Shown here: positions 1 to 17,291 of the stretch, piece by piece
How positions within the stretch are numbered: the stretch's first letter is position 1
Layout of the letters: each line of letters begins with the position of its first letter
Virus record (IMG/VR): IMGVR_UViG_2541047683_000005
DNA length: 17,291 nucleotides
Reading direction: 5' to 3' (one strand)
Origin: a virus
Lineage: Duplodnaviria; Heunggongvirae; Uroviricota; Caudoviricetes
The notes under the pieces: generated by a model
Database searches by the model: none
What the model saw: the letters and a program-made list of their open reading frames with translations, nothing else
What the model was told of the DNA's origin: nothing
Made by a program: the position numbers and the translations under genes

Positions 1-2757
1 TCAGTTCCCCACCGCCTTTCCAAAATCCGGTGCTCTACGTGGCGCAATAGCACCCGGTTCCCACCAACTCGTTATGTCGAACTCCCGTTGCGCGCGGTCC
101 CTTACTCGATCATTGTAACCAGGGTTTGCCATCTCCTGAAGTTGTTGCAATATCAGGTGATTGGTTATCGCTTTCGCATACCACAGGTTTGCGAATGGAG
201 TGATCATGCGGGCTGTTTTCAGTGCATCGGCACCGAATGATGTTTCTTCACCCTGTAGAGCCTTCTGTGGGTTAGTAATCAGTAATTTTGTTAACTGCTC
301 TGCAAAGCTCAACACAGGGCCACCCATAGTGGCACCGATGCTGGAGCCATATTGCGTATGGTCCTGGAAAATAAAATCACCGTAGATACCGAACGAACCA
401 CCTTTCAGTAGAGCCTGAACCCATGTGGTTGGTTTTGTCATATCCAGCGGGTCATTACCATTTAACAAACTGTTCATCTGGATCGCAAACATACCAGCAA
501 GAGTTGTTCCCCCGATATATGAGGCCAGAAATTTAATGGCCGGAACGGTGTCCAAATCCCGTGTTCTGTTAACAAGTTGCCGAAATCCAGCAAATGGGGT
601 TGTTTTGAAGAGCATGAAGCTCTTCATTAACTCGCCAGCATCATCACGGGCATATGTATCAATACCCGTAGCGGTGGTCACAGCATTGGTCATCTCACCG
701 TGCGTAATTCCCAGCAATTTCTGGGCTGCTTCAGCGCGTGCATTACGAATCATGCGCGTGATGGTCTGCTCAGCCTCAGCGTCGAATGCTTCTTTCATCC
801 GTTTCAGGCGTTCTGGAGGGAGATCTCCAAGGGCTGCCAGTGCCTTTTCACTCCCGGCACGAATCCGGGCAATACGGTCTGCCATAATGTCGGCGATTAC
901 GTTATCGGGCACAGCGTAAATCGCGTCTGGCGTCATCCCCATATGCCCGGCAGTAGTCATCGGCCTGAGTTCTGCCGCTGCCATGATGGCCCAGTCCTCA
1001 TTGCTCCATCCCTTGTTAGCCAGAATGGTTTTATCGGTTCCTTTTATATCGTCCAGCGTCTTAAATTTTCTGGTCAGCTCGCCAATATTTTTGTACATCA
1101 GGAGACCAAACGACGCTTTGTTTGCGCGGTCCATAGCGATCAGCCCGGACCACTTCAGTGTCTTCTCTGCGAACCAGCCAGTTATGCCGCGAGACAAGTC
1201 AAACCCGCCCATTTTCGAAACCACAGCAGCATGTGAATCCACCAGCAGACCGAGTTCAGCATTCGCCTTTTTGGCATCTCCACTAAACAGGTTTTTGATA
1301 GTGTTAACGGAAAGCCGCATTCCACCACGGGTAAAGCCCAGCGCCTGCGCATTTGCCCGCATAATTGCCTGGTCGCTGGTTGCTGTCAGTACGCTGGTGC
1401 CAAGCATGGCGCTGGTCATCAGGTTACGCAGACCACCAACTGCTGAAGAGAACACACTCGATGAAGCGACACCATTTAGGCCAGCCATTGAGTTGAACAT
1501 ACGGGCAACTAATTTGGCCTCATCCTCCATTTCTTTTTTGCGTTTCCCGCCTGTTACTGCGCGCTTATAGATGCGATCCAGTACCAGGGAAAAGTTTCTT
1601 TCGGCGTCCGGACCAAAGGCTTTAACGACGCCCAAATCCCTGGATGATGATTGCAGGTGCGACATCATCACCCCCACCAGCGGCTGCTGAGTGTATCGCT
1701 CCATATAGGCGAAGTGTGACTGCGCATCCTTGAACGCCATCACCCTGTGCTGAGAACCACGGCTCTTTATTCCTCCGGCTCCCATAAATGTACCAGGCTC
1801 AATTTTGTTTGCCCCATCAGTGGCCTTCGTTTCAAAGATCGCTTCCAGTGCCTGACGGTACTCGACGTCATTCATAATGCTGCCGTCAGGATTAACGTAA
1901 TTGCTGCGATCCTGCGTGTTGTAAGCGTCATCAACCCATTTCTGGCGGGCAAACTCAATCGGTGGCTGGCGACCTGAAAGACGTGCTGTAGCTTGCTCTG
2001 CCACTGGTAACGATGCCAGCCATTCTTCGCGCCCGGCATTGCGAATAAGGTCAGCATCATCCACATATGGCGTATGCCAGTCTTCTCGCAGGCCTATGTC
2101 AAAGCCGTTGTCGTTCATCTCATGACGAACACGGCCTGTTACATCCTTCCAAATCTGTGCAATTTTCTTCGCCAGGGGATTACCGGTATCTTCGCCATAA
2201 ATTTCTTTCAGGATCTGGAGTTGTGCAGACTTTGCCGCCTGCCTGTCGAATACACTCCGAAACCGCTGCTCTCCAAGCGCCCTGCTCTGCTCGAAGAATT
2301 TGCGGACGTCATCACCTGCTTTTAGAAGTTCAGCACTGAGCTGACGGGACCAGTCCTGATATGCCCCAATTGCAAGCTCTTCAGCAGAAGTAACGGAGAT
2401 ATCAGCTTTGTCTCTCGATCGTCGGCCAGCAAAAATAAACTGCTGCAAATTAACAGGTGTCTGCTGATCAGGCGGGATGTTAGCATCGAGAGTGTCAGTA
2501 ATTTTACTGATGGCGATCGCATTCTGGGCAACACGCTGTCTTTTCTTGTACACATCATGAACCACACGCTGGCGTACCAGTTCTGCTGCATCCATGTATG
2601 TTTGAGCATCAGGAATACCACTTTTGCCTTCTTTTGCATTCTTTCTGTGCACATGCTGCACAGCTTCTTTGATACGATCTTCAATATTTTTCAGCTCATC
2701 AGCCTTTGGCTGGCGACCAAGTGTCTGCGCAATAGCTTCCACACATGCCTGTTTCAT
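1..2757 (-). CDS. Large hypothetical protein, 918 aa; candidate phage virion-internal/ejection-type protein (function unassigned)
   Basis: Uninterrupted minus-strand ORF ending with TGA at 3..1. The track ORF starts at 2778 but that codon is GTG (plus strand 2776-2778 is cac) with no nearby SD. The ATG at 2757 (MKQACVEAI...) has GAGGAA 6 nt upstream and overlaps the upstream stop as TAATG, so it is the preferred start. Protein is rich in A/G/S/T/N/Q with almost no Cys and has Gly/Ala/Ser-rich hydrophobic stretches (e.g. LAGLNGVASSSVFSSAVGG). No catalytic motif recognised. Confidence 0.65.
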   Translation of the reverse strand: MKQACVEAIAQTLGRQPKADELKNIEDRIKEAVQHVHRKNAKEGKSGIPDAQTYMDAAELVRQRVVHDVYKKRQRVAQNAIAISKITDTLDANIPPDQQTPVNLQQFIFAGRRSRDKADISVTSAEELAIGAYQDWSRQLSAELLKAGDDVRKFFEQSRALGEQRFRSVFDRQAAKSAQLQILKEIYGEDTGNPLAKKIAQIWKDVTGRVRHEMNDNGFDIGLREDWHTPYVDDADLIRNAGREEWLASLPVAEQATARLSGRQPPIEFARQKWVDDAYNTQDRSNYVNPDGSIMNDVEYRQALEAIFETKATDGANKIEPGTFMGAGGIKSRGSQHRVMAFKDAQSHFAYMERYTQQPLVGVMMSHLQSSSRDLGVVKAFGPDAERNFSLVLDRIYKRAVTGGKRKKEMEDEAKLVARMFNSMAGLNGVASSSVFSSAVGGLRNLMTSAMLGTSVLTATSDQAIMRANAQALGFTRGGMRLSVNTIKNLFSGDAKKANAELGLLVDSHAAVVSKMGGFDLSRGITGWFAEKTLKWSGLIAMDRANKASFGLLMYKNIGELTRKFKTLDDIKGTDKTILANKGWSNEDWAIMAAAELRPMTTAGHMGMTPDAIYAVPDNVIADIMADRIARIRAGSEKALAALGDLPPERLKRMKEAFDAEAEQTITRMIRNARAEAAQKLLGITHGEMTNAVTTATGIDTYARDDAGELMKSFMLFKTTPFAGFRQLVNRTRDLDTVPAIKFLASYIGGTTLAGMFAIQMNSLLNGNDPLDMTKPTTWVQALLKGGSFGIYGDFIFQDHTQYGSSIGATMGGPVLSFAEQLTKLLITNPQKALQGEETSFGADALKTARMITPFANLWYAKAITNHLILQQLQEMANPGYNDRVRDRAQREFDITSWWEPGAIAPRRAPDFGKAVGN

Positions 2758-4817
2758 TATGGGTTCCTCAAGAAGCACGCTGCCGCTACAGAATAAACCT
2801 TCGATTCGTTCTGGACTGTCTTAATCTGTTCATCCAGCTCAGCCAGGAGATCAGAAAGTTTTGTCGGGTTTCCGGTTTCCGGGTGAGCTATAGTCAGCTC
2901 AGGATTGGCAACAGCCATGTCCCTGGCAGCCATAAGGTCATAGCTGTTGGATGAGAGAACCTGCCCTGTATCTGGATCAACGCTGACGTCCCCTCTGTGT
3001 TCACCAGCCGATGAGAAAGCACTTTCAGCACGAGGGACAGGCGATTCACTAATTGGCTCTGATGATGTTTCATATCTGACACCATTTTCTTCAAAAACCT
3101 TTTGTATTTCATGGTATTGCTCTTGGTAAGTATCAGATATATCTGATCGCAATGGACCATCAAGCCCTCGCGCCATCCCCCCAACATTTACAGGCTGACC
3201 ATCATTAAGTTGCCTGTATGCTTCATCCATGGCGTCAACATGACTGTTGATGCTCTCATTGCTGGTGTGAAGCACTGGTGACGATTCAATATCGTAATGA
3301 AGCCCCTCATTCAAAATGTGGGCTGCATCAATATCGCTTGGTTTTATTCTTTCCCTCGCCCGGATACCAAAAACTTTTTCTACTGCGGCTTCCAGTTTCA
3401 TATTGCGAAGACGCATACTTACGAGTAACCGTAACTGCTCAGGTGTAACGGTTCCAACCTGAATACCACTGTATCTGAATATATAGGCTTTAAAACCTGA
3501 AATAATTTTTTCCCATGACGAAACGCTTGTCTTTAGAGATGGATTTACTGCATGTGCGGCAACTTCTTCAGCGTATAACCACTCAGGATATGTTTCAGGG
3601 TACTCACCCCTTTTCTTATATTCATAATATTGTGACATCCCATATGCAAATTCAGGATAGTCAGAATGCTTGTTTGCAGATTTAAGTACAGCATTAGCTA
3701 GCTTTCTGGCCTTCCAGTCAGGGTAATGGCGCTGCTCAAGATGAAGCGCCTCATGATGAAGGGTTTCTAACAGTTCTTCATGGTCTTTTAATCCATTAAT
3801 ATTTATTCTTATTATTGGTTCTTTTCCAGAAGCTACTGTCACATGACCTTTATTCAGAAGTATTTCTCCATCACTATTTTTTATTGCTGGTTCATTAATA
3901 AGTTCTATTACTCCTGAATCAGATAAATCACGAACCATTGACTCAATGTTACCATCAGGAGATTGCTGATAATGTTCACCAAAAGTTGATTTTATTTCTT
4001 CTGCAGAAATGTTCGACTCTGTACCATCATGGTTATTATGGGTAGTCAGGTGATGAACGCCACCAAAGACCCCGCCTAAAACGGCATCGACTAACATCGC
4101 CTGACCGTCAAATACCCGGTACTGTTTTGCCATCTCCGTGTAGCCTTTTTCCTCCAGTGTTGCACCGACAGAGTAACGGTTCAGTCCACCGAATCCGGTG
4201 TTGATTGCCACACCTGAGGCAATGCGCGTTGCCAGTGTGGTGCCGACGGCAGCGGGTAAGGCCATACCCACAGCATTGAAAAGGCTCTGCTGCGTTGCCA
4301 GGTTACGCGCCGTAGCCTCATCTACTCCCTTCCCTTTAAAATCCTGATAGGACTGCTCATACGTAGAACCGAAGGCTGTAGCAGCGCCGATGAGTGGGCC
4401 GCCAAACATAGTTGTTCCGATTGCAGGAACAAATTTACCAAGCTCATTTAATACCTCAGCCGCCATTCCCTGGCTGCCTGCATCAGGCTTCACATAGCTG
4501 CGGGCATCCTGTAACTGTTTTCCGATCGTGTCGTATGTATCATTCAGTGTTTTGTCAGCATCAGGGAACATCTCCCGAAAAATATTAACAGTCGGTGCCA
4601 CGTCTGCGGTAAATGCCGGATCGCTAATCAGGCGCTTGCTGAATCCGACGGCAGACTGCGCGAGACCGAGAGCCCCCTCCGCCACGCCGCTCAAAAGTGC
4701 AGTACCTGAACCCTGGAAGGGAGTCGGATCGTAGTCTTCTGGCCTTGCTGGGTTGGCAACTGTTTTGTCGTCAATCCATGCCTGACCTTCTGGAGCCAAA
4801 GAAAAAACATCAGACAT
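2757..4817 (-). CDS. Large hypothetical protein, 686 aa, with glycine-rich hydrophobic segments and an HExxH (HHEALH) zinc-metallopeptidase-like motif
   Basis: ATG at 4817 overlaps the upstream stop as TAATG; GAGGG lies 7 nt upstream. N-terminal third has glycine-zipper-like hydrophobic segments (GKFVPAIGTTMFGGPLIGAATAFG; LVDAVLGGVFGGV). HHEALH is encoded at 3741-3758, inside a visibly AT-richer patch (about 3400-4060). Confidence 0.65.
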   Translation of the reverse strand: MSDVFSLAPEGQAWIDDKTVANPARPEDYDPTPFQGSGTALLSGVAEGALGLAQSAVGFSKRLISDPAFTADVAPTVNIFREMFPDADKTLNDTYDTIGKQLQDARSYVKPDAGSQGMAAEVLNELGKFVPAIGTTMFGGPLIGAATAFGSTYEQSYQDFKGKGVDEATARNLATQQSLFNAVGMALPAAVGTTLATRIASGVAINTGFGGLNRYSVGATLEEKGYTEMAKQYRVFDGQAMLVDAVLGGVFGGVHHLTTHNNHDGTESNISAEEIKSTFGEHYQQSPDGNIESMVRDLSDSGVIELINEPAIKNSDGEILLNKGHVTVASGKEPIIRININGLKDHEELLETLHHEALHLEQRHYPDWKARKLANAVLKSANKHSDYPEFAYGMSQYYEYKKRGEYPETYPEWLYAEEVAAHAVNPSLKTSVSSWEKIISGFKAYIFRYSGIQVGTVTPEQLRLLVSMRLRNMKLEAAVEKVFGIRARERIKPSDIDAAHILNEGLHYDIESSPVLHTSNESINSHVDAMDEAYRQLNDGQPVNVGGMARGLDGPLRSDISDTYQEQYHEIQKVFEENGVRYETSSEPISESPVPRAESAFSSAGEHRGDVSVDPDTGQVLSSNSYDLMAARDMAVANPELTIAHPETGNPTKLSDLLAELDEQIKTVQNESKVYSVAAACFLRNP

Positions 4818-7348
4818 TATTCAACCCTCACGACAATAGCTTTATTGGTTCTGGGATCTGTTGCCCAGCGTCCGCTACCATTTACAAGCCGATACCGGTT
4901 ATTGCCGATATTAACTGGCGTGAAATTTGACACTGCATTTACGTTAAGTCCGGCATCTTTCAGTGCTTGTTTCGCAGATGTGGTATAGCGATCTTTGAAA
5001 GTAGATTTATCCATGCCGAAAGGCATTACAACGTCGCCGCCATTAAAACCATTGTATATACCGCCAGTAGCATACTTCACGGCATCAGCTACAATGTCTG
5101 TATCAGGCATACTGGTTCTTACCGTAGATGCATCACCAGATTGATAAGCTATTCCTGCATAAGCGGCTTTGAAAAGGCTATAACTGATCTGGCGTAACTG
5201 CGGGTTACGGGCAAATGCATTACCTACCTGTTCGTCGAAAGCGTCTTTCATCTTATCTTCGCTCGGCAACTGTACCGGAGTTATGCCCGCATTCTTCATG
5301 GCCTTCGTCGGATTCAGTAGTTGGTCGCCGGAAAGAATAACCTTTGCAACGTCGTACTTGTTCATCGTCGGCTTATACCCGATGAACTGACTATATGGGA
5401 TCGTCGGCTTGGTGTTGTCGTACTGGTTATCCGGCGTGCCCAGCAGCAGCGCAGAATAGGCTGTTGCCGCACTGTTCGGAGCAATTACAGATGCCACCTG
5501 CCGTATTGCTGGCGCAGGCAGCTTCTCCCCCATGCTCTGCAACAGTTTAATTGTCTGGTCAACGTTCTGAGTGCCGCGCACCTGCTGTGCCAGCGCAGCC
5601 GCCTCTTCACTGTTGAGGATTGGGGCATTAATTCCCAACGCGCGTAAGCTTTCCTGCGACGAGAAACGGTTAGCCACCTCGGCAGTGATGTCGTCAGGGT
5701 TGTTGCTGGTGATCGGCTTATAGGCTCCGATTTCCACCGCTGCACTAAACGGATTATTCTGCCTCTGGGTTATTACCTTCGTGGCTGCCGCCGATACCCG
5801 GTCGAATAACTCCGCACGAGACGCATACCCCTCCCCTGTTTCACCAGTATCCGGGCGCAATTGCTCAACATATGCGGTAATGCTGCTTGTCGGCATGTTG
5901 CGGAAAGAGCCTATATACTGTCCGGCGATCTGCAAATTTCTGAACTCGATATATCGCAGGTTTCCTTCTCTGACACCATAAGCTGCAATGAACTCATCCT
6001 CACCAGGTGGGTTAGGAAATTCAACGCCACGCATAAACGCAGCCGTCGCATCGCGAACCCTGCTATCGAGCATCGTTCTATATTCAGCCTGCTGCTGTCT
6101 GGCTAATGCATCCGTCTGTCGCAACACGCTGGCCTGATCTGATTCATTTAAAGCATCGAACCAGGCTACACCGGTATAACGTTTATTTTTTGTCGGTAGC
6201 TGAGAAAGCCCCAGTGCGGCACTAACACCTGCAGTTAACTGCTGATCACTGTATGGCTGGCTACCGTTTTCATGATGGATAATGGCTGCACAAAGCGCCT
6301 TCAGGGTATCAGGATTTGATGCATCGAGAGGCTCATCAGCAGAAACGCCAAGTTGTTCGCACACTGCTTTGATATACGACATAGTGTCATTTTTATCAGT
6401 AGGCGGTGCCCAGCGATTAATTATCTCGCTGACGGTATCAATACCCTGCCGCTGATACGACATCAGGTTCCGCCCTAATGCACGAATACCGTGTTCAGGG
6501 GTTTCGAATTTGGCAAAGCGACCATCATCACCAGTCTGCCCAACCCACGGATTAGTTTTGCTGTATTCAAGATTGCCGGGGTTATTGTTGCGTATACCGC
6601 GGGTACGATCGGAAGAGCCACTATCTGCTACAGCACGGCGAGATCCAGCAGCAGTATCGCTTAACTCGCCGTTTTGCTGTCTTACCTGAAGATAGTTTGC
6701 TCCAATAGCATTTTGAGCAGTTGCTTTTGCTGTTGCTTCTTTAAACTCGATTTTCTTGGCCTGGATTTGCTCGTCGCTCCAGCCATGCGCAATACCGTAA
6801 TCCTCAATTTGCTGGAAAGTTTGCGTATTAGCCAATATGTATGCTGCGTTGTCGCCATATAATGCTGCGGCATTTTTACCATTATTCAGCAGTGTCGCCT
6901 GAAACTGGCCTTCTTCGTAGGCATTTATTTGCCCTATCTCGTACCTCCCGGCCTGCGTAGTGAACTGAATGCGCTGCTGCTGCGCCTGCTGCATGAAAGC
7001 ATTACGAGCCTGTTCATCCGGCAGCGACATAGCCAGTTGTTCGACCTGAGCATCAAACTGCTGTGTATACTCATGGCCTTTTCCAATAGCATTTTTCCCT
7101 TTCAGATTAAGCAATCCTGTTTCAGGATTATTCAGCAGATCACTGCCTGTCTGACTGAGTTTAAGGGATGCCTCCTGAACCAAGGCAATATTGGCGCGCT
7201 GTTTTGCCTGACCAAGAACATCAATTGCCTCTGTCCCTGCCCGAACAAAAGCATCACCAATACCTGGCTGAGAAAACGTCTGCAAGCCTGCTGACTGAAC
7301 TCCACGGCTCTCAACCTGACGTCCGGATACTGTTGGTACGACTGGCAT
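4817..7348 (-). CDS. Large hypothetical protein, 843 aa; candidate phage virion-internal protein (function unassigned)
   Basis: ATG at 7348 with GGGGG 6 nt upstream; stop overlaps the next gene start (TAATG at 4815-4819). Gln/Ala/Asn-rich N-terminus typical of phage structural proteins. Conserved-looking segment RNNNPGNLEYSKTNPWVGQ...RWAPPTDKNDT at about aa 251-330 (nt about 6239-6598). Confidence 0.65.
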   Translation of the reverse strand: MPVVPTVSGRQVESRGVQSAGLQTFSQPGIGDAFVRAGTEAIDVLGQAKQRANIALVQEASLKLSQTGSDLLNNPETGLLNLKGKNAIGKGHEYTQQFDAQVEQLAMSLPDEQARNAFMQQAQQQRIQFTTQAGRYEIGQINAYEEGQFQATLLNNGKNAAALYGDNAAYILANTQTFQQIEDYGIAHGWSDEQIQAKKIEFKEATAKATAQNAIGANYLQVRQQNGELSDTAAGSRRAVADSGSSDRTRGIRNNNPGNLEYSKTNPWVGQTGDDGRFAKFETPEHGIRALGRNLMSYQRQGIDTVSEIINRWAPPTDKNDTMSYIKAVCEQLGVSADEPLDASNPDTLKALCAAIIHHENGSQPYSDQQLTAGVSAALGLSQLPTKNKRYTGVAWFDALNESDQASVLRQTDALARQQQAEYRTMLDSRVRDATAAFMRGVEFPNPPGEDEFIAAYGVREGNLRYIEFRNLQIAGQYIGSFRNMPTSSITAYVEQLRPDTGETGEGYASRAELFDRVSAAATKVITQRQNNPFSAAVEIGAYKPITSNNPDDITAEVANRFSSQESLRALGINAPILNSEEAAALAQQVRGTQNVDQTIKLLQSMGEKLPAPAIRQVASVIAPNSAATAYSALLLGTPDNQYDNTKPTIPYSQFIGYKPTMNKYDVAKVILSGDQLLNPTKAMKNAGITPVQLPSEDKMKDAFDEQVGNAFARNPQLRQISYSLFKAAYAGIAYQSGDASTVRTSMPDTDIVADAVKYATGGIYNGFNGGDVVMPFGMDKSTFKDRYTTSAKQALKDAGLNVNAVSNFTPVNIGNNRYRLVNGSGRWATDPRTNKAIVVRVE

Positions 7349-8017: not shown

Positions 8018-8434
8018 TTAGCCTCCGGCTCTTCCGTAGCGCTGTTCTGGTGGATTCACATAGCCCCTTTCTTGCAGGTATTCGCGAATATCAGACATCA
8101 GGAGACGGTTAACCGTGCTCCTGTCTTTTCTCTGGTAAAGGCGTCTGGTGATCATGAAGTAGTTAGCAATGACCTCCGGTATATCCCTGACGCTGATACA
8201 TGCTGTATGCTGGTCAATAGCTTCAATCATCTCTTCACGAGTTACAAAAGTCTGGCGTAAACGAGTGATCACACCATGTACATCTGAATGATCATTTATA
8301 CGCTTATTTTGGCGCTTCGCGCTCTCGACTGTGACACTGACAACAATGTCAACTCTTTGTTTCTCCGCCATTTCATCCACAATGTGATCACCTGCACGGC
8401 GACCATGTGCGTGATCATTTCTTACTATTTCCAT
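8018..8434 (-). CDS. Hypothetical protein, 138 aa
   Basis: ATG at 8434 with GGAGGAG 6 nt upstream; overlaps the 3' end of the FinO-like gene by 20 nt. No recognisable motif. Last gene before the terminator. Confidence 0.55.
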
Positions 8435-8912
8435 TCATCTCCTCCAGTAGTTTTCCTGCGTGCATCTGTTGTAGTGGTGTTACCTCGCCGCACGGCTGGC
8501 CTTTCAGGTCGTAACGCGCGCCACCAGCTACCAGGGCGCGGTAATAGCGCGGAGTCTGCACATAACGCGCCAGCGTTGCGCGTAGTGTTCCCTGTCCGAG
8601 TGAAATACCTCTCGCGGCAATATCCTGTATCAGGTCGTCAAATATCCCCACCTTAAGCGGCTTAGGTGATTCCGGGCTGAATAATTCAGGCCATAGCTCA
8701 ATAAGACGGTTAACGCGTCTGCGGTTTTTACGCTGCCGTTTGGTCATACGCCGCCGCGGTGTTTCTCCTGTGAGCTTCTGCTGTGTGTTCTGGTTATCTG
8801 GCATCACTTTATGCGCCGATGTGGTTTTATTCTGCTGCTGAGCCGCCTGTGCTGTTTTCTGCGGCGTGCCGTAAATGCCCTTCGGTTTTCTGTTTATGGT
8901 CAGCTTTGTCAT
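8415..8912 (-). CDS. ProQ/FinO-family RNA-binding protein (RNA chaperone-like)
   Basis: ATG at 8912 with GGGGAAGG upstream. The C-terminal half ([23 protein letters not shown]...[35 protein letters not shown]) matches the ProQ/FinO signature as I recall it from E. coli ProQ (PLKIGIFQDL...LRSALRLYTSSWRYLYGV...RVDLDGNPCGEL). N-terminus is basic and Gln-rich. Confidence 0.85.
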
Positions 8913-9584: not shown

Positions 9585-11711
9585 TTAATCTTCTGCTTCA
9601 GGCTGGAACATCAGCACGTAAAAAATATGCTGCTTCCCGCCAATCCTGCCGAGCGCCTTTTTCTTGTAACGGCGGTCGCCTCCCGCTTCCAGCATTCCGG
9701 CAGCACTCAACGCGCGGGCAAAGTGGGACGGGTTAAATCCCTGTGCGATCTCCCCCTCAAACACATGCGGAAACGTGTAAAAACGGAACTCATCATCTTC
9801 ATTTCTGATACTCCCCTTTCTGTATCCGGCAAGGTCTTTAATCGGTAAATCACGCTCATCGCTGTTTGGGTAGGGAAGGTATCTACTGAACCCGAACGAC
9901 GACAAAAACGCCTCAGCCTGTTCAACCATCTGTTTAAATTCCCTGTTGCCCGTGCCGAATTCCTTCACCCAGGCATTAAAGTTATGCTGAACTGCATCAC
10001 GGCACGCCTGAACATCCCAGCCTGTAACATGACCGGAAAGCACAAGCGCGGCCTCCAGTACGGCGAATCTTTCCCCCACGCGGTGAACCTGCTCGCCGTA
10101 GCTCTCCGGTATCAGGTTGCGCCACCGCTCGCGACATGCCCTTACCGCGTCCTTTGCCTCCTGCTGGTGGCCTGCCAGCCATTTAACCCACTCACGACCT
10201 GCCGCCCCGTGATTTTCTGTCCAGGCATCTTTTAACGCGTCTGCGTGCGCCTTTCCGGTGCTGTATTCGTGAAACTGCGAGGCCTTTTCCATCGGCACGT
10301 TAAGCAGACGGACAAGCTGCCCCGCTTTAATTTTTATCCCTTCCGTTTTGAGGAATGTTTCAACGTCCATTTCTCCGGTGCTGATTGCCACCGTGCGCCA
10401 GTGTTTTATCTCCCTGTTGCCGCCGTCCTTCGCCCCCTGTAATTTCCCGGAACCGTTAAACAGCGTATAGGCTGACGTGGACACCTCCCGCGCGTTTCCG
10501 GCCTGGCCTATTTCATCCAGGGGTAACAGCCCGTCATTATGTGCTTCGGCCTCGTTGGCGATACCTAACGCCGTTCCGTACCAGGTCAGCCGTTGCGCGT
10601 CCGGCTCTCCCCATAAACTTGATGCAATGTTCTGTGTGGTGGTTTTACCTGCTGATGATTGCTCAAAAAGATGAACCCCGAAGCCGTCAGCACCCACCAG
10701 CCCGATTAATGGTGCGGATAGCGATACCGCCACACCCAGCATCATGGACGGATTACCACCAGCCAGCCGCGCCACGGTATCGCGCCAGCCCTCCGCTGTT
10801 CCCGCCACGGAATAGCCATTAACTGCGGCAGTTTTTCCGGTAAACAGGATGGGTTTCTCTGATTCACCAATGACCGAACCATCCGGCATGATGTACGCAC
10901 CAAAATGCCAGCCCGTTGTAGTGCTTAGCTGCCATTCCTCATGACTTCCGCTTAACTGCATCCAGTCAGCCAGGATGGCTCTGTATTTGCCGTTGGTCGT
11001 CACGTTAAGACCGTGGTCTTTCAGCAACCGCCAGCCGTCACGGTCACCAATGCCTCCGCACGGGACCGCCATTGTAATGACCTCATGGTTTGCTGGTTTT
11101 TTCCAGCGCATCACGCGGTAATGCTCTTTGCCGATTGTTCCTGTTCCCAGTAGTTCAAGCGGAGAACATAACCACGTCTCAGGCCGGATAATTTCGCCTG
11201 ACTGCTTGTCCACTTTGGGCGTTACCCAGAAAACACCATCGACGCGACTTTCAACACGAGGCTTTAATTCGTCATCATAATTTCCGGTGAAATTTGTCTT
11301 TGCCGGAAGGTTGATCACCAGACTGTTACCGCGTTCCGCATCATCCTTCAGTCCAGCCATGCGCGGTGTCCAGTCCTCCGGCTGCTGGTCAACAAAGCTG
11401 CGGTAGCAACGCGCCTCCTTCACACCCGCCACTGCAAGCAGTGTCGCTATCTGTGTAAGGTGCTGCTCTGATATTTCACCAGCACGATAAACGCGCACGT
11501 AATAGCGCCCTTTGTCGATGATTTGCGTGTCTGCCAGACTCGCCAGTTGTTCCGGTCCAAGAATAACTGGATGTGTATCATCTGCCGCAATATGCTTTCC
11601 GGCCCATTCGCTCCACTCTTTCGCATGTGCCCAGGCATCACTACCCGCAAAGATAATCACCTCCGTCATTTTGTCTTTCGGCTGGTGCTTTAAATTCGGT
11701 GCGCGTTTCAT
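9585..11711 (-). CDS. Replication protein, 708 aa (primase/helicase-like with P-loop; DUF927-like)
   Basis: Large ORF with a P-loop-like motif (QSSAGKTT) mid-protein. Start ATG overlaps the upstream stop as ATGA (11708-11711). Position between alpA/regulators and the iterons matches pri-rep genes of P4-like and PICI-like elements. Family assignment is from memory of domain architecture, not a search. Confidence 0.7.
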   Translation of the reverse strand: MKRAPNLKHQPKDKMTEVIIFAGSDAWAHAKEWSEWAGKHIAADDTHPVILGPEQLASLADTQIIDKGRYYVRVYRAGEISEQHLTQIATLLAVAGVKEARCYRSFVDQQPEDWTPRMAGLKDDAERGNSLVINLPAKTNFTGNYDDELKPRVESRVDGVFWVTPKVDKQSGEIIRPETWLCSPLELLGTGTIGKEHYRVMRWKKPANHEVITMAVPCGGIGDRDGWRLLKDHGLNVTTNGKYRAILADWMQLSGSHEEWQLSTTTGWHFGAYIMPDGSVIGESEKPILFTGKTAAVNGYSVAGTAEGWRDTVARLAGGNPSMMLGVAVSLSAPLIGLVGADGFGVHLFEQSSAGKTTTQNIASSLWGEPDAQRLTWYGTALGIANEAEAHNDGLLPLDEIGQAGNAREVSTSAYTLFNGSGKLQGAKDGGNREIKHWRTVAISTGEMDVETFLKTEGIKIKAGQLVRLLNVPMEKASQFHEYSTGKAHADALKDAWTENHGAAGREWVKWLAGHQQEAKDAVRACRERWRNLIPESYGEQVHRVGERFAVLEAALVLSGHVTGWDVQACRDAVQHNFNAWVKEFGTGNREFKQMVEQAEAFLSSFGFSRYLPYPNSDERDLPIKDLAGYRKGSIRNEDDEFRFYTFPHVFEGEIAQGFNPSHFARALSAAGMLEAGGDRRYKKKALGRIGGKQHIFYVLMFQPEAED

Positions 11712-12012: not shown

Positions 12013-12270
12013 TTATTTCCCGGTATGGGGTTCTTCTTTATATTTATGGGCTAACAAATCTGGTAATTGCCTGTATTTATCCTCGGCAATATATTCAGAA
12101 TAATCGACAGCACTGTTCAGTATATCTAACGCCGTTTCATGCTCCAGATTCGAAACTATAAGGAACGTTGCTACTTTTAGCATATTCGCGATATGCAAAA
12201 GAGCATCAATTTCATTTTTTGGCGCTTCGCTGAATTTTTGCTCCAGAAGAATAAATCGTTCATCACGCAT
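12013..12270 (-). CDS. Small hypothetical protein, 85 aa
   Basis: ATG at 12270 with strong SD AGGAGGA 6 nt upstream; overlaps the upstream ORF stop by 8 nt. Acidic, helical-looking protein with no recognised domain. Confidence 0.55.
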   Translation of the reverse strand: MRDERFILLEQKFSEAPKNEIDALLHIANMLKVATFLIVSNLEHETALDILNSAVDYSEYIAEDKYRQLPDLLAHKYKEEPHTGK

Positions 12271-13231
12271 AGTGTTCCTCCTGACGGATGCGGGCAGTAA
12301 ATACCATCACGCAGCCAGCCGGGGATTGCTGACGGGCTTCCTGTTCGCTGGTGGCCTCGATGTGGATTACGCGCGGTTGTGCCGTACTCAGGGCGATAAA
12401 ACGCCAGATAAAATTGTTTTCGCATTTCTGAATAAACAGCGTGTTTTCTTCGCGCCCTTTCCATGTTGCCGAGATATAGCCCATGTCATTGAGCATCTCG
12501 CAGGCATCAACCAGCGTATCAGCGGCTACGTGTACAGTGTTTTTACCGTCAGCTATGCAATCACGGTGCACCGCCAGGAAGGTGTATATAAATTTAGGGT
12601 GAGTTTGGGTATGCTGTGTTCCAGCCATAATCGTTACCTCGTTTAACGGTTTGGTTAGACGCCCTGCATGTGTTGCGAGCACTGCGGGGCGTTGCTCTTT
12701 CAGGTGTATTTCACCTTTGCTTTTTAATTTACTCACTGGTGAAATACACTTCAAGCCTTTTTTTATCATTTTTTTTGCGTATACTGACATACACCAATTT
12801 TTAGGAGATCCAGAAATGGCAACTGGTGCAAAGAACGCAAAATCACAAATGACAACTGTCAGAATCCCACATGAAGTAATGGATGATATTGAGCAACTTA
12901 AAGAACCTGGCGAAAGTACCGCTGGTTTTTTAGTTACTGCCGCAAAAGGCGAGATCAAACGCCGCCAGCGCCGCAAGGCCAAAGAACAGGAATAGCCCAC
13001 CAGCAAGCCAGCACATTCACCATAATGACCCTCGGTTAAAGCTAGGGTCATTACCTCGTCGTTATCCAGAACTGAAACGGCATCAGTAACATTGCTGATT
13101 TCCAGCGCAGCACACACATCAGCGCCAACAAACCACGGCTCGCCGTTGATACTCACTATGCGCACCTGAATGTCATCGAATTTAATGACAGAGATTTCAG
13201 TGCGCCCGGCATAAAAGACAGGTTTACGCAT
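12263..13231 (-). CDS. Bro-N domain protein ORF (322-aa open frame; probably composite, true 3' extent uncertain)
   Basis: ATG at 13231 with GGAGGTGA 6 nt upstream, 2 nt after the antirepressor stop. N-terminal ~70 aa match the Bro-N pattern (INGEPWFVGADVCAALEISN...LDNDE). The middle of the frame is Cys/Ser-rich and looks non-coding: it is antisense to a plus-strand RHH gene and runs through an AT-rich promoter-like region. The last 122 aa have their own SD (GAGGT) and ATG at 12628 and may be a separate gene, 12263..12628. Confidence 0.45.
   Translation of the reverse strand: MRKPVFYAGRTEISVIKFDDIQVRIVSINGEPWFVGADVCAALEISNVTDAVSVLDNDEVMTLALTEGHYGECAGLLVGYSCSLALRRWRRLISPFAAVTKKPAVLSPGSLSCSISSITSCGILTVVICDFAFFAPVAISGSPKNWCMSVYAKKMIKKGLKCISPVSKLKSKGEIHLKEQRPAVLATHAGRLTKPLNEVTIMAGTQHTQTHPKFIYTFLAVHRDCIADGKNTVHVAADTLVDACEMLNDMGYISATWKGREENTLFIQKCENNFIWRFIALSTAQPRVIHIEATSEQEARQQSPAGCVMVFTARIRQEEHYA
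12703..12750. promoter_or_regulatory. Inverted repeat (candidate operator) in the RHH-gene upstream region
   Basis: GGTGTATTTCACC (12703-12715) and GGTGAAATACAC (12738-12749) form a 12/13-bp inverted repeat with a 22-bp spacer, followed by T-runs and a TATACT -10-like hexamer (12780-12785) upstream of the RHH gene SD/ATG. Confidence 0.4.
12816..12995 (+). CDS. Small ribbon-helix-helix (Arc/Mnt/CopG-like) DNA-binding protein, 59 aa
   Basis: ATG at 12816 with SD AGGAGA 7 nt upstream. Protein MATGAKNAKSQMTTVRIPHEVMDDIEQL... has a beta-strand-like TVRIPHEV followed by two helical segments and a basic tail (KRRQRRKAKEQE). Only convincing plus-strand gene; antisense to the long Bro-N frame. Confidence 0.5.
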   Translation: MATGAKNAKSQMTTVRIPHEVMDDIEQLKEPGESTAGFLVTAAKGEIKRRQRRKAKEQE

Positions 13232-13991
13232 GGCTGCTCACCTCCATGCGGCGGGCTAACCAGCGTTGCGAAAGGCGAATTAATTCAGCTTTCCGCTGGT
13301 GGTAGTCCTGGCCTAACTCAATCAGCGTGATATTGCTCTGCTCAAGGTAAGAAAGGTGCTCAAGCTGCAACGTGCTCATGTGGTCGCGTGGTTCGCCTGT
13401 GATGCCGTTCGCCTGCGCCCACTGTTTTGCAGTCATGCCACCCAGCACGATACGCGCCAGCATATTGGCTTCCGTGGTGTAGTGGTGCTGGAGCGTGTTT
13501 TTACCCAGTTCAGCCCGGTACGTCTCCAGCGCGGCGCACATAGGCTTAAAGTGGCTGGCTACGGTGATACGGGCTTTCAGTTCCCGGCGTAACGCTGCGG
13601 AACGTACAGGCGCTATCTTGTGTAGCTCCTCCTCGCATTTGATGAAGTACTGACGAACGGCGCGGCCCTGATCATTGCGTTCGATCATTGCCAGTTCTTT
13701 CGCCATTCCGACACTTAACAGATAGTCTTTACCGGGTCTGCCAGAGTGCTTAATCTTGCTGTAAGCCGCGCCATTCGGGCTTTTCCCCAAATTTGGGGAA
13801 ATTGTTTTATGGACTGAGTAATCGTACCCAATGGTGAAGTCATATTCAGAGATGCGATCAGTGATCCATGTAGAGAAGTCTTTTCCCACGCCCAACGCTT
13901 TGTGTAACGCTTTTGCGCTAACAACAGCGGCTTCACGCCCGCCAATAACGCCGGATGCTACCGGAATAATTGCAGCAAAATTCTTAAGCAT
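13224..13991 (-). CDS. Phage antirepressor, AntA/AntB-domain protein
   Basis: 255 aa. N-terminal region VVSAKALHKALGVGKDFSTWITDRISEYDFTIGYDY...GRPGKDYLLSVGMAKELAMIERNDQGRAVRQYFIKCEEEL matches the AntA/AntB antirepressor signature. ATG at 13991 with GGGGGTGA upstream; overlaps the Rha-like gene by 8 nt. Confidence 0.75.
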   Translation of the reverse strand: MLKNFAAIIPVASGVIGGREAAVVSAKALHKALGVGKDFSTWITDRISEYDFTIGYDYSVHKTISPNLGKSPNGAAYSKIKHSGRPGKDYLLSVGMAKELAMIERNDQGRAVRQYFIKCEEELHKIAPVRSAALRRELKARITVASHFKPMCAALETYRAELGKNTLQHHYTTEANMLARIVLGGMTAKQWAQANGITGEPRDHMSTLQLEHLSYLEQSNITLIELGQDYHQRKAELIRLSQRWLARRMEVSSHA

Positions 13992-14682
13992 GTTTCACCC
14001 CCAGAGACGGCGCTGACGTTATCAGGCTGGCGAACGTCTCCATGCGGCGGGCAACCTCCCGCACCGCTTCGGTCGGTGCCATGCCGTTCTGTATCGCTTC
14101 GTGAAATGCTGCCTGCTCGATTTTCTGCATGACCACCAGCAAACCTAACTGCTGATCGCTGGCTGCCTGGCGTTCACCTGTTACCAATCCGGCAAAACGG
14201 TTTTCTGTGCGTGCCAGATTGATGTAGTGGTGACGTTCTGCACCCAGTGCTTTAAGTCCCTCACGGCTTTCGTGATAGCCCGGCAGATATTCGCGGCGTA
14301 CGGGTTCAGCGGCGCGACGCTTTGCAAATGCCTTTGTAACATCCAGCTTGAAGCGGTTCATGCGTTCATCATCACGACCGCGCACAATGCGACACATGTA
14401 ATCAAACTGATCGCTATTCAGGAGGGCAAACTTATGTTCACGCTCCCCGTTTTGACGGGTTTTTAATCGCTCCGTTTGAAACGGAAGGATGCCCAGTTCA
14501 CGCAATCCGGTTTTGTGCTTCTGAATGAGCGAATAAAGGTTTTTGTGCTTTATGCCAATACGCTCAGCAAATAAGCGGGAATCAATGCGCGACTCTGCTT
14601 TGTGGCGAATCAATATATCGCTCTGGCTGGCTTCAGGCTGAACGAAGCCCTGCCCCTGTACGGGCATATATGGACGGTTCAT
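13984..14682 (-). CDS. Putative phage regulatory protein (Rha-like)
   Basis: 232 aa. Segment DSRLFAERIGIKHKNLYSLIQKH...FALLNSDQFDYM resembles the Rha-family pattern (SR-IAE-GK-H-NVLR-I ... Y-L-D). ATG at 14682 with AGGAG 7 nt upstream. Assignment is moderate. Confidence 0.5.
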   Translation of the reverse strand: MNRPYMPVQGQGFVQPEASQSDILIRHKAESRIDSRLFAERIGIKHKNLYSLIQKHKTGLRELGILPFQTERLKTRQNGEREHKFALLNSDQFDYMCRIVRGRDDERMNRFKLDVTKAFAKRRAAEPVRREYLPGYHESREGLKALGAERHHYINLARTENRFAGLVTGERQAASDQQLGLLVVMQKIEQAAFHEAIQNGMAPTEAVREVARRMETFASLITSAPSLGVKHA

Positions 14683-16076: not shown

Positions 16077-17291
16077 TCATCCACATTTTCCGAACTTGCC
16101 ATGCACCACGTTACCGCCATGTTCGAGCGAATCCATATAGTCGGCGTACCACTGGAGCATCTCGCGCCGCCCGTCCAGATATTGCGCATGATTGTACGTG
16201 CCACGAATTGAGTTCTTATCAACGTGTGCAAGCTGCGTTTCTATCCACGCGGTGTTATAGCCCTGCTCATGTAAAATCGTGCTCATCGTGTGCCGGAACC
16301 CATGACCAGTAACGCGCCCAGAATAGCCAATACGACGAATAAGCACGTTCATCGCCATTTCACTCATCGGCTTACTGTGCTGGATTCGACCAGGGAAAAT
16401 AAACTGATACTGCCCCGTCATGTGTTTTAACTGTTCCAGAATAGCGATCGCCTGTTCTGAAAGCGGCACACAATGAGGACGGCGCATCTTCATGCGTTCT
16501 TTCGGCACTTCCCACAGACGATTATCAAAATCAATCTCCTGCCACTCTGCCTGTCGTAATTCCCCTGGACGGAGTCCTGTCAGAATCAATAATCGCATAC
16601 CCAGCTTGACGATCTGGCTTCCGGTGTACGTATTAAAAACGCGGAAAAATTCCGGCAGTTCGTCGGCCTTCAAATAGGCGTAATGCTCTTTTTTGTGTGG
16701 AGCAAATGCGCTTGCCAGATCTGGTGCGGGGTTATATTCAGCGCGTCCGGTGATGATTGCGTACCGGAACACCTCGCCGCATCGCTGGCGAACCTTACGC
16801 AATTTTTCGGTCGCCCCACGGTCATTAAGACGGGAGAGAACCGCGAGCAACTCCATTGGCTTAATTTCTGCGATCGGCCTGCCGCCAATGTACGGAAAGA
16901 CGTCTTTTTCAAACGTCTCGATCATTTCCTCGGCGTATGACGATGACCACCTGTCGATCCGCTTTTCGTACCATTCGCGAGCGATACCCTCAAAAGTATT
17001 GCCAAATTTGCTAGCCTGTTCTCGCTTTTGGGCTTTTCTGACCTCACTTGGATTTATACCACCAGCAAGAAGCCTTTTAGCCTCATCCCTTGCCGCCCTG
17101 GCATCAGACAGAGACACATCAGGGTACACACCCAACGACAACATTTTGGGCTTTCCTGCAAACCTGTAGCGCAGTCGCCACCCTTTCGAACCGTTCGGCT
17201 CAATGAGCAACGAAAGCCCGTTACCGTCATTGAGTGTATAAGCCTTTTCTTTCGGCTTCGCGCGCCTGATGGCAAGGTCTGAAAGCAGCAT
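16077..17291 (-). CDS. int: Tyrosine recombinase, P4-family phage integrase
   Basis: 404 aa with ATG exactly at the window edge. N-terminus (AIRRAKPKEKAYTLNDGNGLSLLIEPNGSKGWRLRYRF) is the integrase arm-binding domain typical of P4-like integrases. C-terminal catalytic signatures are present: LRPGE (Arg), HGFRHT (His-x-x-Arg) and RGTYNHAQY (Tyr nucleophile). Confidence 0.9.
   Translation of the reverse strand: MLLSDLAIRRAKPKEKAYTLNDGNGLSLLIEPNGSKGWRLRYRFAGKPKMLSLGVYPDVSLSDARAARDEAKRLLAGGINPSEVRKAQKREQASKFGNTFEGIAREWYEKRIDRWSSSYAEEMIETFEKDVFPYIGGRPIAEIKPMELLAVLSRLNDRGATEKLRKVRQRCGEVFRYAIITGRAEYNPAPDLASAFAPHKKEHYAYLKADELPEFFRVFNTYTGSQIVKLGMRLLILTGLRPGELRQAEWQEIDFDNRLWEVPKERMKMRRPHCVPLSEQAIAILEQLKHMTGQYQFIFPGRIQHSKPMSEMAMNVLIRRIGYSGRVTGHGFRHTMSTILHEQGYNTAWIETQLAHVDKNSIRGTYNHAQYLDGRREMLQWYADYMDSLEHGGNVVHGKFGKCG

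Follow-up and report, generated by a model that had tools for sequence, protein, structure and literature searches.

An open frame antisense to ylcI in an enterobacterial satellite island, a probable variant of the P4 eta/kil arrangement

Why should a long reading frame stay open through a small gene encoded on the opposite strand, and then through the promoter of that gene? The question is raised by a 17,291-nucleotide (nt) stretch of caudoviral DNA (IMG/VR record IMGVR_UViG_2541047683_000005, here called the window), in which a minus-strand open reading frame (ORF) of 969 nt (12263-13231; 322 codons plus stop, ATG start) wholly contains, in antisense orientation, the plus-strand gene ylcI (12816-12998). 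On sequence evidence, the window is an integrative satellite island of the P4/PICI-like kind (PICI, phage-inducible chromosomal island), and the chromosome of E. coli strain E1 (NZ_CP115821.1) contains a segment identical to it. A sequence-only reading of this locus had offered two alternatives, a chimeric or decaying Bro-N gene fused in frame to a downstream gene, or a genuine case of overlapping antisense genes; both are partly true and neither is complete. The frame is a real feature and a new variant of the eta/kil arrangement of satellite P4. More precisely, the interpretation of this eta-like ORF as the island's version of the P4 nested pair, kept for read-through translation, is held here with a probability of about 0.65.

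The ORF is built from a 72-codon Bro-N fragment, 123 codons antisense to ylcI and to the promoter region between icd and ylcI, and a 121-codon Icd-like gene. Its extent, its Bro-N start and the C-terminal part with its own Shine–Dalgarno sequence (SD) and ATG at 12628 had been noticed in the sequence-only reading and are borne out, with the Bro-N domain proving partial and the C-terminal part being a product of 121 amino acids (aa) with an Icd-like domain. Likewise, the promoter-like region that reads as KKMIKKGLK in the long frame is the antisense of the T-rich ylcI promoter region. The nearest in-frame stop codon 5′ of the ORF start lies at 13238-13240. Across the middle 159 codons (12629-13105) the frame has no stops, while the other two minus-strand frames have 17 and 8, and over the 187-nt intergenic part it is stop-free in 2.6% of dinucleotide-preserving shuffles of the window alone. 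A lone window chosen for having the ORF proves little, and the weight of the argument therefore rests on 127 relatives that were not selected for openness.

The comparison covered 128 loci: 16 from E. coli (the window included), 32 species representatives (Yersinia, Pectobacterium, Xenorhabdus, Hafnia, Kosakonia, Kluyvera, Raoultella, Serratia, Rouxiella, Citrobacter, Enterobacter and others) and 80 IMG/VR contigs. The frame followed in each of them was the minus-strand frame whose third codon positions coincide with those of ylcI. Inside ylcI it is stop-free in 128 of 128 loci, and over the 180 nt upstream of the gene in 115 of 128, which is the outcome of the alignment of homologous loci that had been suggested as a check. 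For the 80 IMG/VR contigs, stop counts over the 186 nt 5′ of ylcI average 0.29 in this frame versus 4.4 and 6.1 in the other frames. Estimated with dinucleotide shuffles, the median probability that the intergenic frame is open by chance is 0.016 per locus. When the 180-nt region is clustered by single linkage, 25 of the 32 groups formed at 80% identity are open throughout, as are 14 of the 16 formed at 70%. From stop to stop, the frame measures 95-534 codons, and close to 200 or more in nearly all loci. Furthermore, the icd-ylcI spacer, which occurs in seven lengths of 184-205 nt, equals 1 mod 3 in 38 of 45 loci, and the icd ATG is in phase in 69 of 79 further loci. Taken across these loci, the pattern indicates that selection maintains the long frame in an open state in more than 100 related satellite islands.

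A simple deletion accident was the first working explanation, and it was dropped once the relatives showed the same open frame. According to this explanation, a deletion-truncated Bro-N gene would read by chance through the antisense of ylcI into icd, as a functionless and decaying pseudogene. RefSeq does give the 5′ piece pseudogene status, in relatives Bro-N is intact and ends at a stop of its own, the codon usage of the middle is antisense-like or neutral, and the exact, full combination is found once among 5426 complete E. coli genomes. However, the 115 loci with an open frame include deletion-free relatives and distant genera, the phase of the spacer is conserved, the synonymous codons of ylcI avoid antisense stops, and the exact 322-aa ORF is present on 19 contigs of the wider collection, together with further 322-aa variants. 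In three relatives without the Bro-N fusion (L002, L004 and L009), the frame natively crosses ylcI and the promoter region, with a length of 335-485 codons, and in fusion-free relatives it stays open for hundreds of bases past the 3′ end of ylcI. The comparative data have largely refuted an accidental origin of the frame, which is considered very improbable. As a lambdoid negative control, ylcI of E. coli K-12 (prophage DLP12) was inspected, and there the corresponding antisense frame is closed 26 nt ahead of the gene and 50 nt beyond it; since ynfO is nearly identical to K-12 ylcI over most of its length, this control amounts to one lineage.

The chimeric fusion proposed in the sequence-only reading holds for the 5′ end of the ORF, where about 72 codons correspond to an intact 185-aa Bro-N gene in the close relative L002, and fails for the partner, which is a long frame native to fusion-free relatives and not simply the 121-aa gene. 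The Bro-N remnant (13016-13231, minus strand), with which the ORF starts, is 97% identical to the 5′ part of the L002 gene, which has its own stop, and diverges from it after ‘...TEGH’. The domain is incomplete in the window, with a Pfam Bro-N match at ORF residues 22-60 that reaches only profile positions 1-41 of 96 (E = 2.8e-7), whereas the intact L002 protein spans positions 1-96. Between Bro-N and ylcI, L002 carries a second small plus-strand gene and a terminator, and two segments are lost from the window relative to it. The first is bounded by the almost identical 3′ ends of ylcI and the second small gene, a repeat (AAAGARCAGGARTA) whose copies are 237 nt apart in L002 and hence in phase; the second extends from just beyond the second small gene to about codon 72 of Bro-N.

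At the recombination junction left in the window (12981-13015), the 3′ ends of ylcI and of the second small plus-strand gene are merged into a hybrid that borders immediately on the Bro-N fragment, and blastn mapping showed that the junction between Bro-N and the small gene is common to islands L004 and L009. The L002 comparison and these junctions show that the Bro-N head is chimeric, and in E1 it is evidently an in-frame scar of recombination in the ‘Bro zone’. The island of CFT073, a model PICI, has the ylcI-icd module and a 433-codon open frame, whose first part is made of pieces of Rha-, AntA- and Bro-N-like genes joined in frame; this suggests that deletions persist only if they preserve the frame. 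In L002, a plus-strand terminator (GGCGACC...GGTCGCC, TTTGTTTTG) lies downstream of the ylcI operon. It is deleted from the window, where no terminator-like site was found 3′ of ylcI (12996-13400, plus strand), and ylcI transcripts may therefore run on antisense into the Bro-N remnant and antA.

The plus-strand gene inside the frame had been recognized from its SD (AGGAGA, 12803-12808) and its ATG at 12816, and the comparative evidence supports it as a real gene. ylcI encodes a 59-aa YlcI/YnfO family protein that passes the NCBIfam model YlcI_YnfO_N (NF041551) with E = 9e-18 and 64 bits against a cut-off of 30. The SD and ATG are conserved, many third-position changes are synonymous and so preserve YlcI, and the codon usage is sense-like (+0.59 bits/codon) while the opposite frame looks antisense. 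The ratio of nonsynonymous to synonymous polymorphism (pN/pS) is 0.37 for ylcI and 0.48 for the antisense frame, with amino-acid identities of 62% and 57%, respectively. Moreover, residues 11-17 of YlcI (codons 12846-12866) covary across 45 loci with the 5-nt cores of three operator repeats located between icd and ylcI, the residue and core pairs being MTTVRIP with AAATA, QLNARFP with AATCG, ALKARVP with TGGCC, and LQVSVRLP with AACAC. It could still be argued that ylcI is a spurious call and the minus-strand frame the sole real gene, given that the predicted protein is short, uncharacterised and encoded wholly within a longer ORF, and that a literature search found no function for it. Against the evidence above, and with homologues outside this context (K-12 ylcI), this proposal deserves hardly any credence.

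In a single-sequence AlphaFold2 model of the YlcI monomer (pLDDT, the predicted local distance difference test score, of 88), residues 1-18 are extended and residues 19-28 and 35-58 form helices, as a ribbon-helix-helix (RHH) monomer would look, and YlcI is probably an RHH-type operator-binding regulator. A PDB profile search for this fold gave a best match of only E = 0.5, and the best Foldseek match, to the SeqA N-terminal domain, had E = 3. The variants seen among the loci suggest that YlcI/YnfO is an operator-specific regulator family with several specificity types. A tblastn search of the phage collection with YlcI found nothing, and no report describing ylcI in such a role, or a frame over ylcI, was found in the literature search. 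Three E. coli loci (L005, L010 and L011) have a longer YlcI of 101 aa, in which 42 residues are inserted ahead of the conserved C-terminal RRKAKE tail, and the antisense frame is stop-free across this version as well.

Genuine antisense overlap, the other alternative of the sequence-only reading, is correct insofar as both frames are maintained, ylcI as a protein, and incorrect insofar as the antisense frame is conserved as openness only. The codon-usage and periodicity scoring that had been suggested separates the two strands: ylcI is sense-like, while the middle of the long frame is antisense-like over ylcI (-0.51 bits/codon) and neutral over the intergenic part. By the same measure, the Bro-N remnant (+0.34 bits/codon) and icd (+0.41) are coding-like. 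Column entropies in the intergenic part are 1.03, 0.97 and 0.90 by codon position, with no period-3 pattern (p = 0.86), and single-base indels in this part are compensated a few codons away. The lack of a period-3 pattern and of coding-like codon usage in the intergenic part points to selection on openness and not on the product. The segments upstream of ylcI are non-homologous between lineages and still open; in several lineages the head segment is a terminator hairpin or another small plus-strand gene in reverse complement, again without stops. Inside ylcI, synonymous-codon resampling of the gene leaves the antisense frame stop-free 8-58% of the time (median about 30%), and all 47 distinct ylcI sequences are stop-free in that frame.

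A stronger claim would be true dual coding, in which a functional Eta-like or Bro-Icd fusion protein is made, its middle matters as protein, and the frame forms a bona fide antisense pair with ylcI. The conservation of the frame in phase with icd, its good SD and ATG, and an antisense-frame pN/pS below 1 inside ylcI would agree with this, as would the existence of a Pfam family for P4 Eta (Phage_ASH) and the GenBank practice of naming such ORFs ‘Icd-like’ or ‘ash family protein’. However, the value of 0.48 is explainable by the third positions that the frame shares with ylcI, the constraint on ylcI is the stronger of the two, and amino-acid-level purifying selection was not found on both frames of the antisense pair. 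Besides the missing periodicity and the nearby compensation of frame-shifting indels, the head segments are non-homologous or domain fragments, and the frame crosses a terminator hairpin, promoters and operators. Dual coding is therefore judged improbable. The pattern named in the sequence-only reading as contrary to its proposal, a conserved full-length Bro-N protein with an unconserved RHH frame, was not observed in the relatives, in which ylcI is conserved as a protein and the long frame only as openness.

If the product is not what is conserved, the kinship of the C-terminal gene indicates what may be. The Icd-like gene (12263-12628, minus strand; 121 aa; SD GAGG 8 nt upstream of the ATG) is the in-frame 3′ end of the long ORF, and its SD and ATG are conserved across relatives. 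The NCBIfam Icd-like model NF033153 matches the 121-aa protein (E = 7e-22), residues 274-317 of the long ORF (E = 8e-21) and residues 161-208 of P4 Eta (E = 1.4e-20), and the Icd-like domain is on this sequence similarity homologous to P4 Kil. This homology surfaced only through the NCBIfam profile and a short BLASTP match; a tblastn search of the phage collection with the Icd-like protein gave one weak match and did not retrieve P4. In P4, eta is the ORF at 8168-8812, whose last 65 codons are Kil. Three candidate eta ATGs (ATGATGATG) overlap the TGA stop of vis, the AlpA homologue, and their position fits the published Eta of 197-199 aa.

The work of Forti et al. 1999 (J Bacteriol 181:5225), as summarised in PMC10111431, describes a constitutive promoter inside eta, Kil as a truncated Eta, and full-length Eta as being produced only from the upstream late promoter. 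In the same summary, translational coupling links eta with the upstream alpA homologue, and translation of eta blocks termination, so that the late transcript continues into the downstream genes. The window resembles P4 in several respects. Both have a short C-terminal gene of the NF033153 family, which forms the in-frame 3′ end of a longer ORF spanning an internal promoter (predicted in the window), at the same place in a satellite operon leading to the primase gene, and in both the middle of the ORF resembles translated regulatory DNA. The long-ORF ATG overlaps the upstream stop in both cases, over the vis TGA in P4 and by 8 nt with antA in the window, where the coupling site (13224-13245, minus strand) consists of the SD GGAGGT (13245-13240), the ATG (13231-13229) and the antA/antB stop codon (13226-13224), which sits inside the ORF.

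At its other end, the stop codon of the ORF overlaps the ATG of the next gene (12270-12268) by 8 nt. Six consecutive ORFs, from 14682 to the primase gene, are chained in this manner by overlaps of 8, 8, 8 and 4 nt, and without the long frame about 600 nt of untranslated sequence would interrupt the chain. In most relatives an in-frame SD-ATG is located at the stop of whichever gene lies upstream, and a start codon is found within 20 nt of the upstream stop in 90 of 99 loci, a weakly informative figure. The differences from P4 concern the interior and the head of the ORF. Within P4 eta lie two RNA genes of the same strand, cI and seqA (Rfam C4, 74.9 bits; isrK, 60.8 bits), and residues 37-161 of P4 Eta match Pfam Phage_ASH (E = 4.5e-23). 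In contrast, the ORF of the window crosses the opposite-strand ylcI with its promoter and operators (in relatives also the second small gene and terminator), starts with a Bro-N fragment and is 322 aa long versus 197-199.

The region between icd and ylcI holds predicted promoters and operator-like repeats. A consensus promoter scanner returned nothing in 12200-13400, the predicted icd promoter falling below its threshold, and the promoters were placed from conservation instead. The probable ylcI promoter has a -10 box TATACT (12780-12785, plus strand) with a T-tract upstream; the box is invariant in an 11-locus alignment and of low column entropy in 45 loci. The predicted internal icd promoter (12726-12754, minus strand) would consist of a -35 element TTGAAG (12754-12749), a 17-nt spacer and a -10 element TAAATT (12731-12726), whose positions 1, 2 and 6 are, together with the -35 block, invariant or nearly so in the same data sets. 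Three operator-like repeats with GTG-NNNNN-CAC cores accompany them: O1 (GGTGTATTTCACC, 12703-12715), which is an inverted copy of O2; O2 (GGTGAAATACAC, 12738-12749), between the -35 and -10 of the icd promoter; and O3 (CTGACATACACC, 12784-12795), which overlaps the -10 and start region of the ylcI promoter. Across 45 loci the 5-nt cores change together and with the YlcI N-terminal segment. The ylcI cassette, with its three matching operators, is best read as a replacement for the CI/seqA RNA immunity elements of P4.

On this basis, a mechanism modelled on P4 can be outlined. The short icd-like gene (ATG 12628) would be made from the internal promoter in the icd-ylcI intergenic region, and the long frame would be translated only when transcription starts at an upstream, induction-dependent promoter of the AlpA/Vis type. 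In the quiescent island, YlcI would cover the internal promoter by binding O1 and O2, and its own promoter by binding O3, and we infer that this binding represses the internal promoter and keeps icd and the replication genes off. Upon induction, upstream transcription would pass antisense through the ylcI cassette, and ribosomes coupled from antA would cross about 600 nt comprising the ylcI antisense, both divergent promoters, the operators and the hairpin. They would reach icd in phase, so that coupled ORFs follow one another without interruption from 14682 as far as the primase gene at 9585, and their cover on the induced transcript would prevent Rho-dependent polarity, as in P4. In such a mechanism it is the act of translation that would matter, not the product.

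A related possibility is that the frame brings ribosomes to the icd start, where they would open an SD hairpin or override repression or antisense control, the purpose being translational activation of icd and the coupled genes and not protection from Rho. The icd leader forms a predicted hairpin, CGTTA-AACGAGG-TAACG (12632-12648, minus strand), with the SD in its loop and compensatory changes at all 4 predicted pairs in 22 loci. A second, conserved terminator-like hairpin (12658-12693, plus strand), followed by a T-rich tract, is antisense to the icd leader. In RNAalifold analysis of 22 loci, its plus strand folds at -22.3 kcal/mol with 13 pairs, 7 of them compensatory, while the minus strand of the same region gives -4.8 kcal/mol and 6 pairs; the hairpin belongs to the plus strand only, and many pairs that are G-U there would become A-C on the minus strand. 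This hairpin may act as a terminator or mark where a plus-strand RNA ends, one that would lie antisense to the icd leader and ribosome-binding site; no promoter for such an RNA was identified. Since ProQ/FinO-family proteins bind structured RNAs with terminator hairpins, the 165-aa member encoded by the island may matter for this hairpin.

Besides these two hairpins, two observations speak for ribosome delivery: out-of-phase frames often end within 17 nt of the icd ATG (L011, L021 and L031), and the ylcI antisense shows no obvious rut-like (Rho utilization) stretch. However, the homologous P4 system acts via transcription termination (Forti et al. 1999, as summarised in PMC10111431), and delivery alone needs no phase, whereas in-phase fusion is the rule in both sets of loci (38/45 and 69/79). 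Delivery as the purpose of the frame is accordingly held to be unlikely, and it should be noted that the two mechanisms are not mutually exclusive.

Several observations weigh against read-through translation of an eta-like frame as the explanation. That the long frame is translated, and that this affects termination, is in both cases carried over from P4 by analogy, and only the kil end and the layout are common to P4 eta and the window. In the ylcI antisense, a scan of the C/G ratio revealed no stretch that is clearly rut-like (rich in C and poor in G), the sole stretch with more C than G being the icd leader and start. Rfam searches found neither C4 nor isrK in the window (gathering score), in 12450-13150 (E ≤ 10) or in 20 relatives; the best Rfam match in 12450-13150 was the R1162 antisense RNA (E = 0.69), leaving no credible family. 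Pfam Phage_ASH is not matched by the ORF of the window or by the 335-aa ORF of L002. About 10% of loci have intergenic stops or an out-of-phase icd start; they include some whose frame stops no more than 17 nt from the icd ATG or enters icd out of phase. The lambdoid negative control is a single lineage. Finally, part of the openness inside ylcI comes free with the shared third positions and the scarcity of tyrosine, given that antisense stops arise in this phase only from NNY-TAN and NNT-CAN dicodons and YlcI is without Tyr in 45 of 48 loci.

Other phage immunity regions show partial likenesses. The immI operon of P1, from which the Icd-like family takes its name, has the order c4 RNA, icd and ant1/ant2, with a small gene of the division-inhibitor type at the operon head beside antirepressor genes and under tight post-transcriptional control. 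P1 uses the C4 antisense RNA, and icd precedes ant; unlike this, Rfam C4 is not found in the window and the Icd-like gene follows antA/Bro. To our knowledge, P1 has no long read-through ORF over an antisense gene. In the immI region of P22, arc and mnt encode RHH repressors that control the antirepressor ant. The window is similar in having a small divergent regulator (probably RHH), operators that overlap divergent promoters, and antirepressor-type genes nearby. It differs in that the PDB profile and Foldseek searches detected no sequence similarity to YlcI, and we know of no long ORF that overlaps arc or mnt.

A further parallel is the isrK-orf45-anrP module of Gifsy-1, in which translation of an upstream small ORF is required for expression of the downstream gene, and IsrK is described as structurally homologous to P4 seqA RNA (PMC4825925). 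That module is RNA-based and has no antisense-embedded protein gene, and the window has no isrK match. Gram-negative PICIs such as EcCICFT073 share the order of zones with the window: integrase/AlpA, the Bro network genes (the ‘Bro zone’, PMC10111431) and replication. The searchable published descriptions of PICIs mention CI/seqA homologues in Bro genes; ylcI or a frame over it is not mentioned there.

A wider proposal can be put forward only tentatively, at slightly less than even odds. An ORF of 200-500 codons would be kept across an enterobacterial satellite family purely in order to be translated, its sequence being a by-product of what lies in its path: the antisense gene of a real regulator, a hairpin, three operators, both promoters and, among relatives, also a terminator. 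It would constrain the synonymous codons and the amino acids of ylcI (no Tyr), fix the length of the promoter region modulo 3 and filter recombination in the Bro zone down to frame-preserving scars. The ylcI cassette would then be a protein-based substitute for the CI-RNA immunity of P4, switched off by the antisense read-through transcript. If true, nature would here offer a clear example of selection for being translatable and nothing more, shaping an antisense gene, promoters and the rearrangements that are tolerated. It would also tie the unexplained ‘Icd-like’, ‘ash family’ and ‘Bro-N pseudogene’ annotations in thousands of genomes of E. coli and other enterobacteria to the tested P4 eta/kil mechanism, and would point to YlcI/YnfO, an uncharacterised y-gene family of K-12, as the operator-specific regulator that governs another kind of immunity switch in satellites.

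Database entries for the locus are as inconsistent as the sequence-only reading had anticipated. The same or nearly the same DNA has been deposited as proteins of 322, 317, 173, 165, 121 and 52 aa, and the frames of relatives as ‘Icd-like’ or ‘ash family’ proteins of 168-485 aa. At this locus, RefSeq lists ylcI, the Icd-like gene of 121 aa and, in place of the Bro-N piece, a ‘transporter’ pseudogene, and it often adds truncated pseudogenes abutting ylcI. The pseudogene name, assigned by the Prokaryotic Genome Annotation Pipeline (PBU98_RS05210, 13106-13231, minus strand), is unrelated to the Bro-N similarity, and related GenBank fragments bear the same label.

In the island as a whole, ylcI is the sole plus-strand gene and all remaining genes are on the minus strand. 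In minus-strand order, the integrase (16077-17291) is followed by an int-alpA RNA (Rfam RF02996, 15965-16032; 41.4 bits, E = 1e-5), which lies between it and the next gene and is also found in L002, and then by a small helix-turn-helix gene, a Rha-like gene (13984-14682) and antA/antB (13224-13991). Two small genes stand between the 969-nt ORF and the DUF927 primase (9585-11711), after which come a single-stranded DNA-binding protein gene and, alongside it, the gene for the 165-aa ProQ/FinO-family protein (8415-8912; Pfam PF04352, E = 1e-23). The remainder (1-7348) is taken up by three large, consecutive and overlapping ORFs of 925, 686 and 843 aa, for which neither Pfam nor PADLOC gave a match, the 925-aa one reaching base 1. 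Lying 3′ of the replication module, these three may represent uncharacterised satellite cargo.

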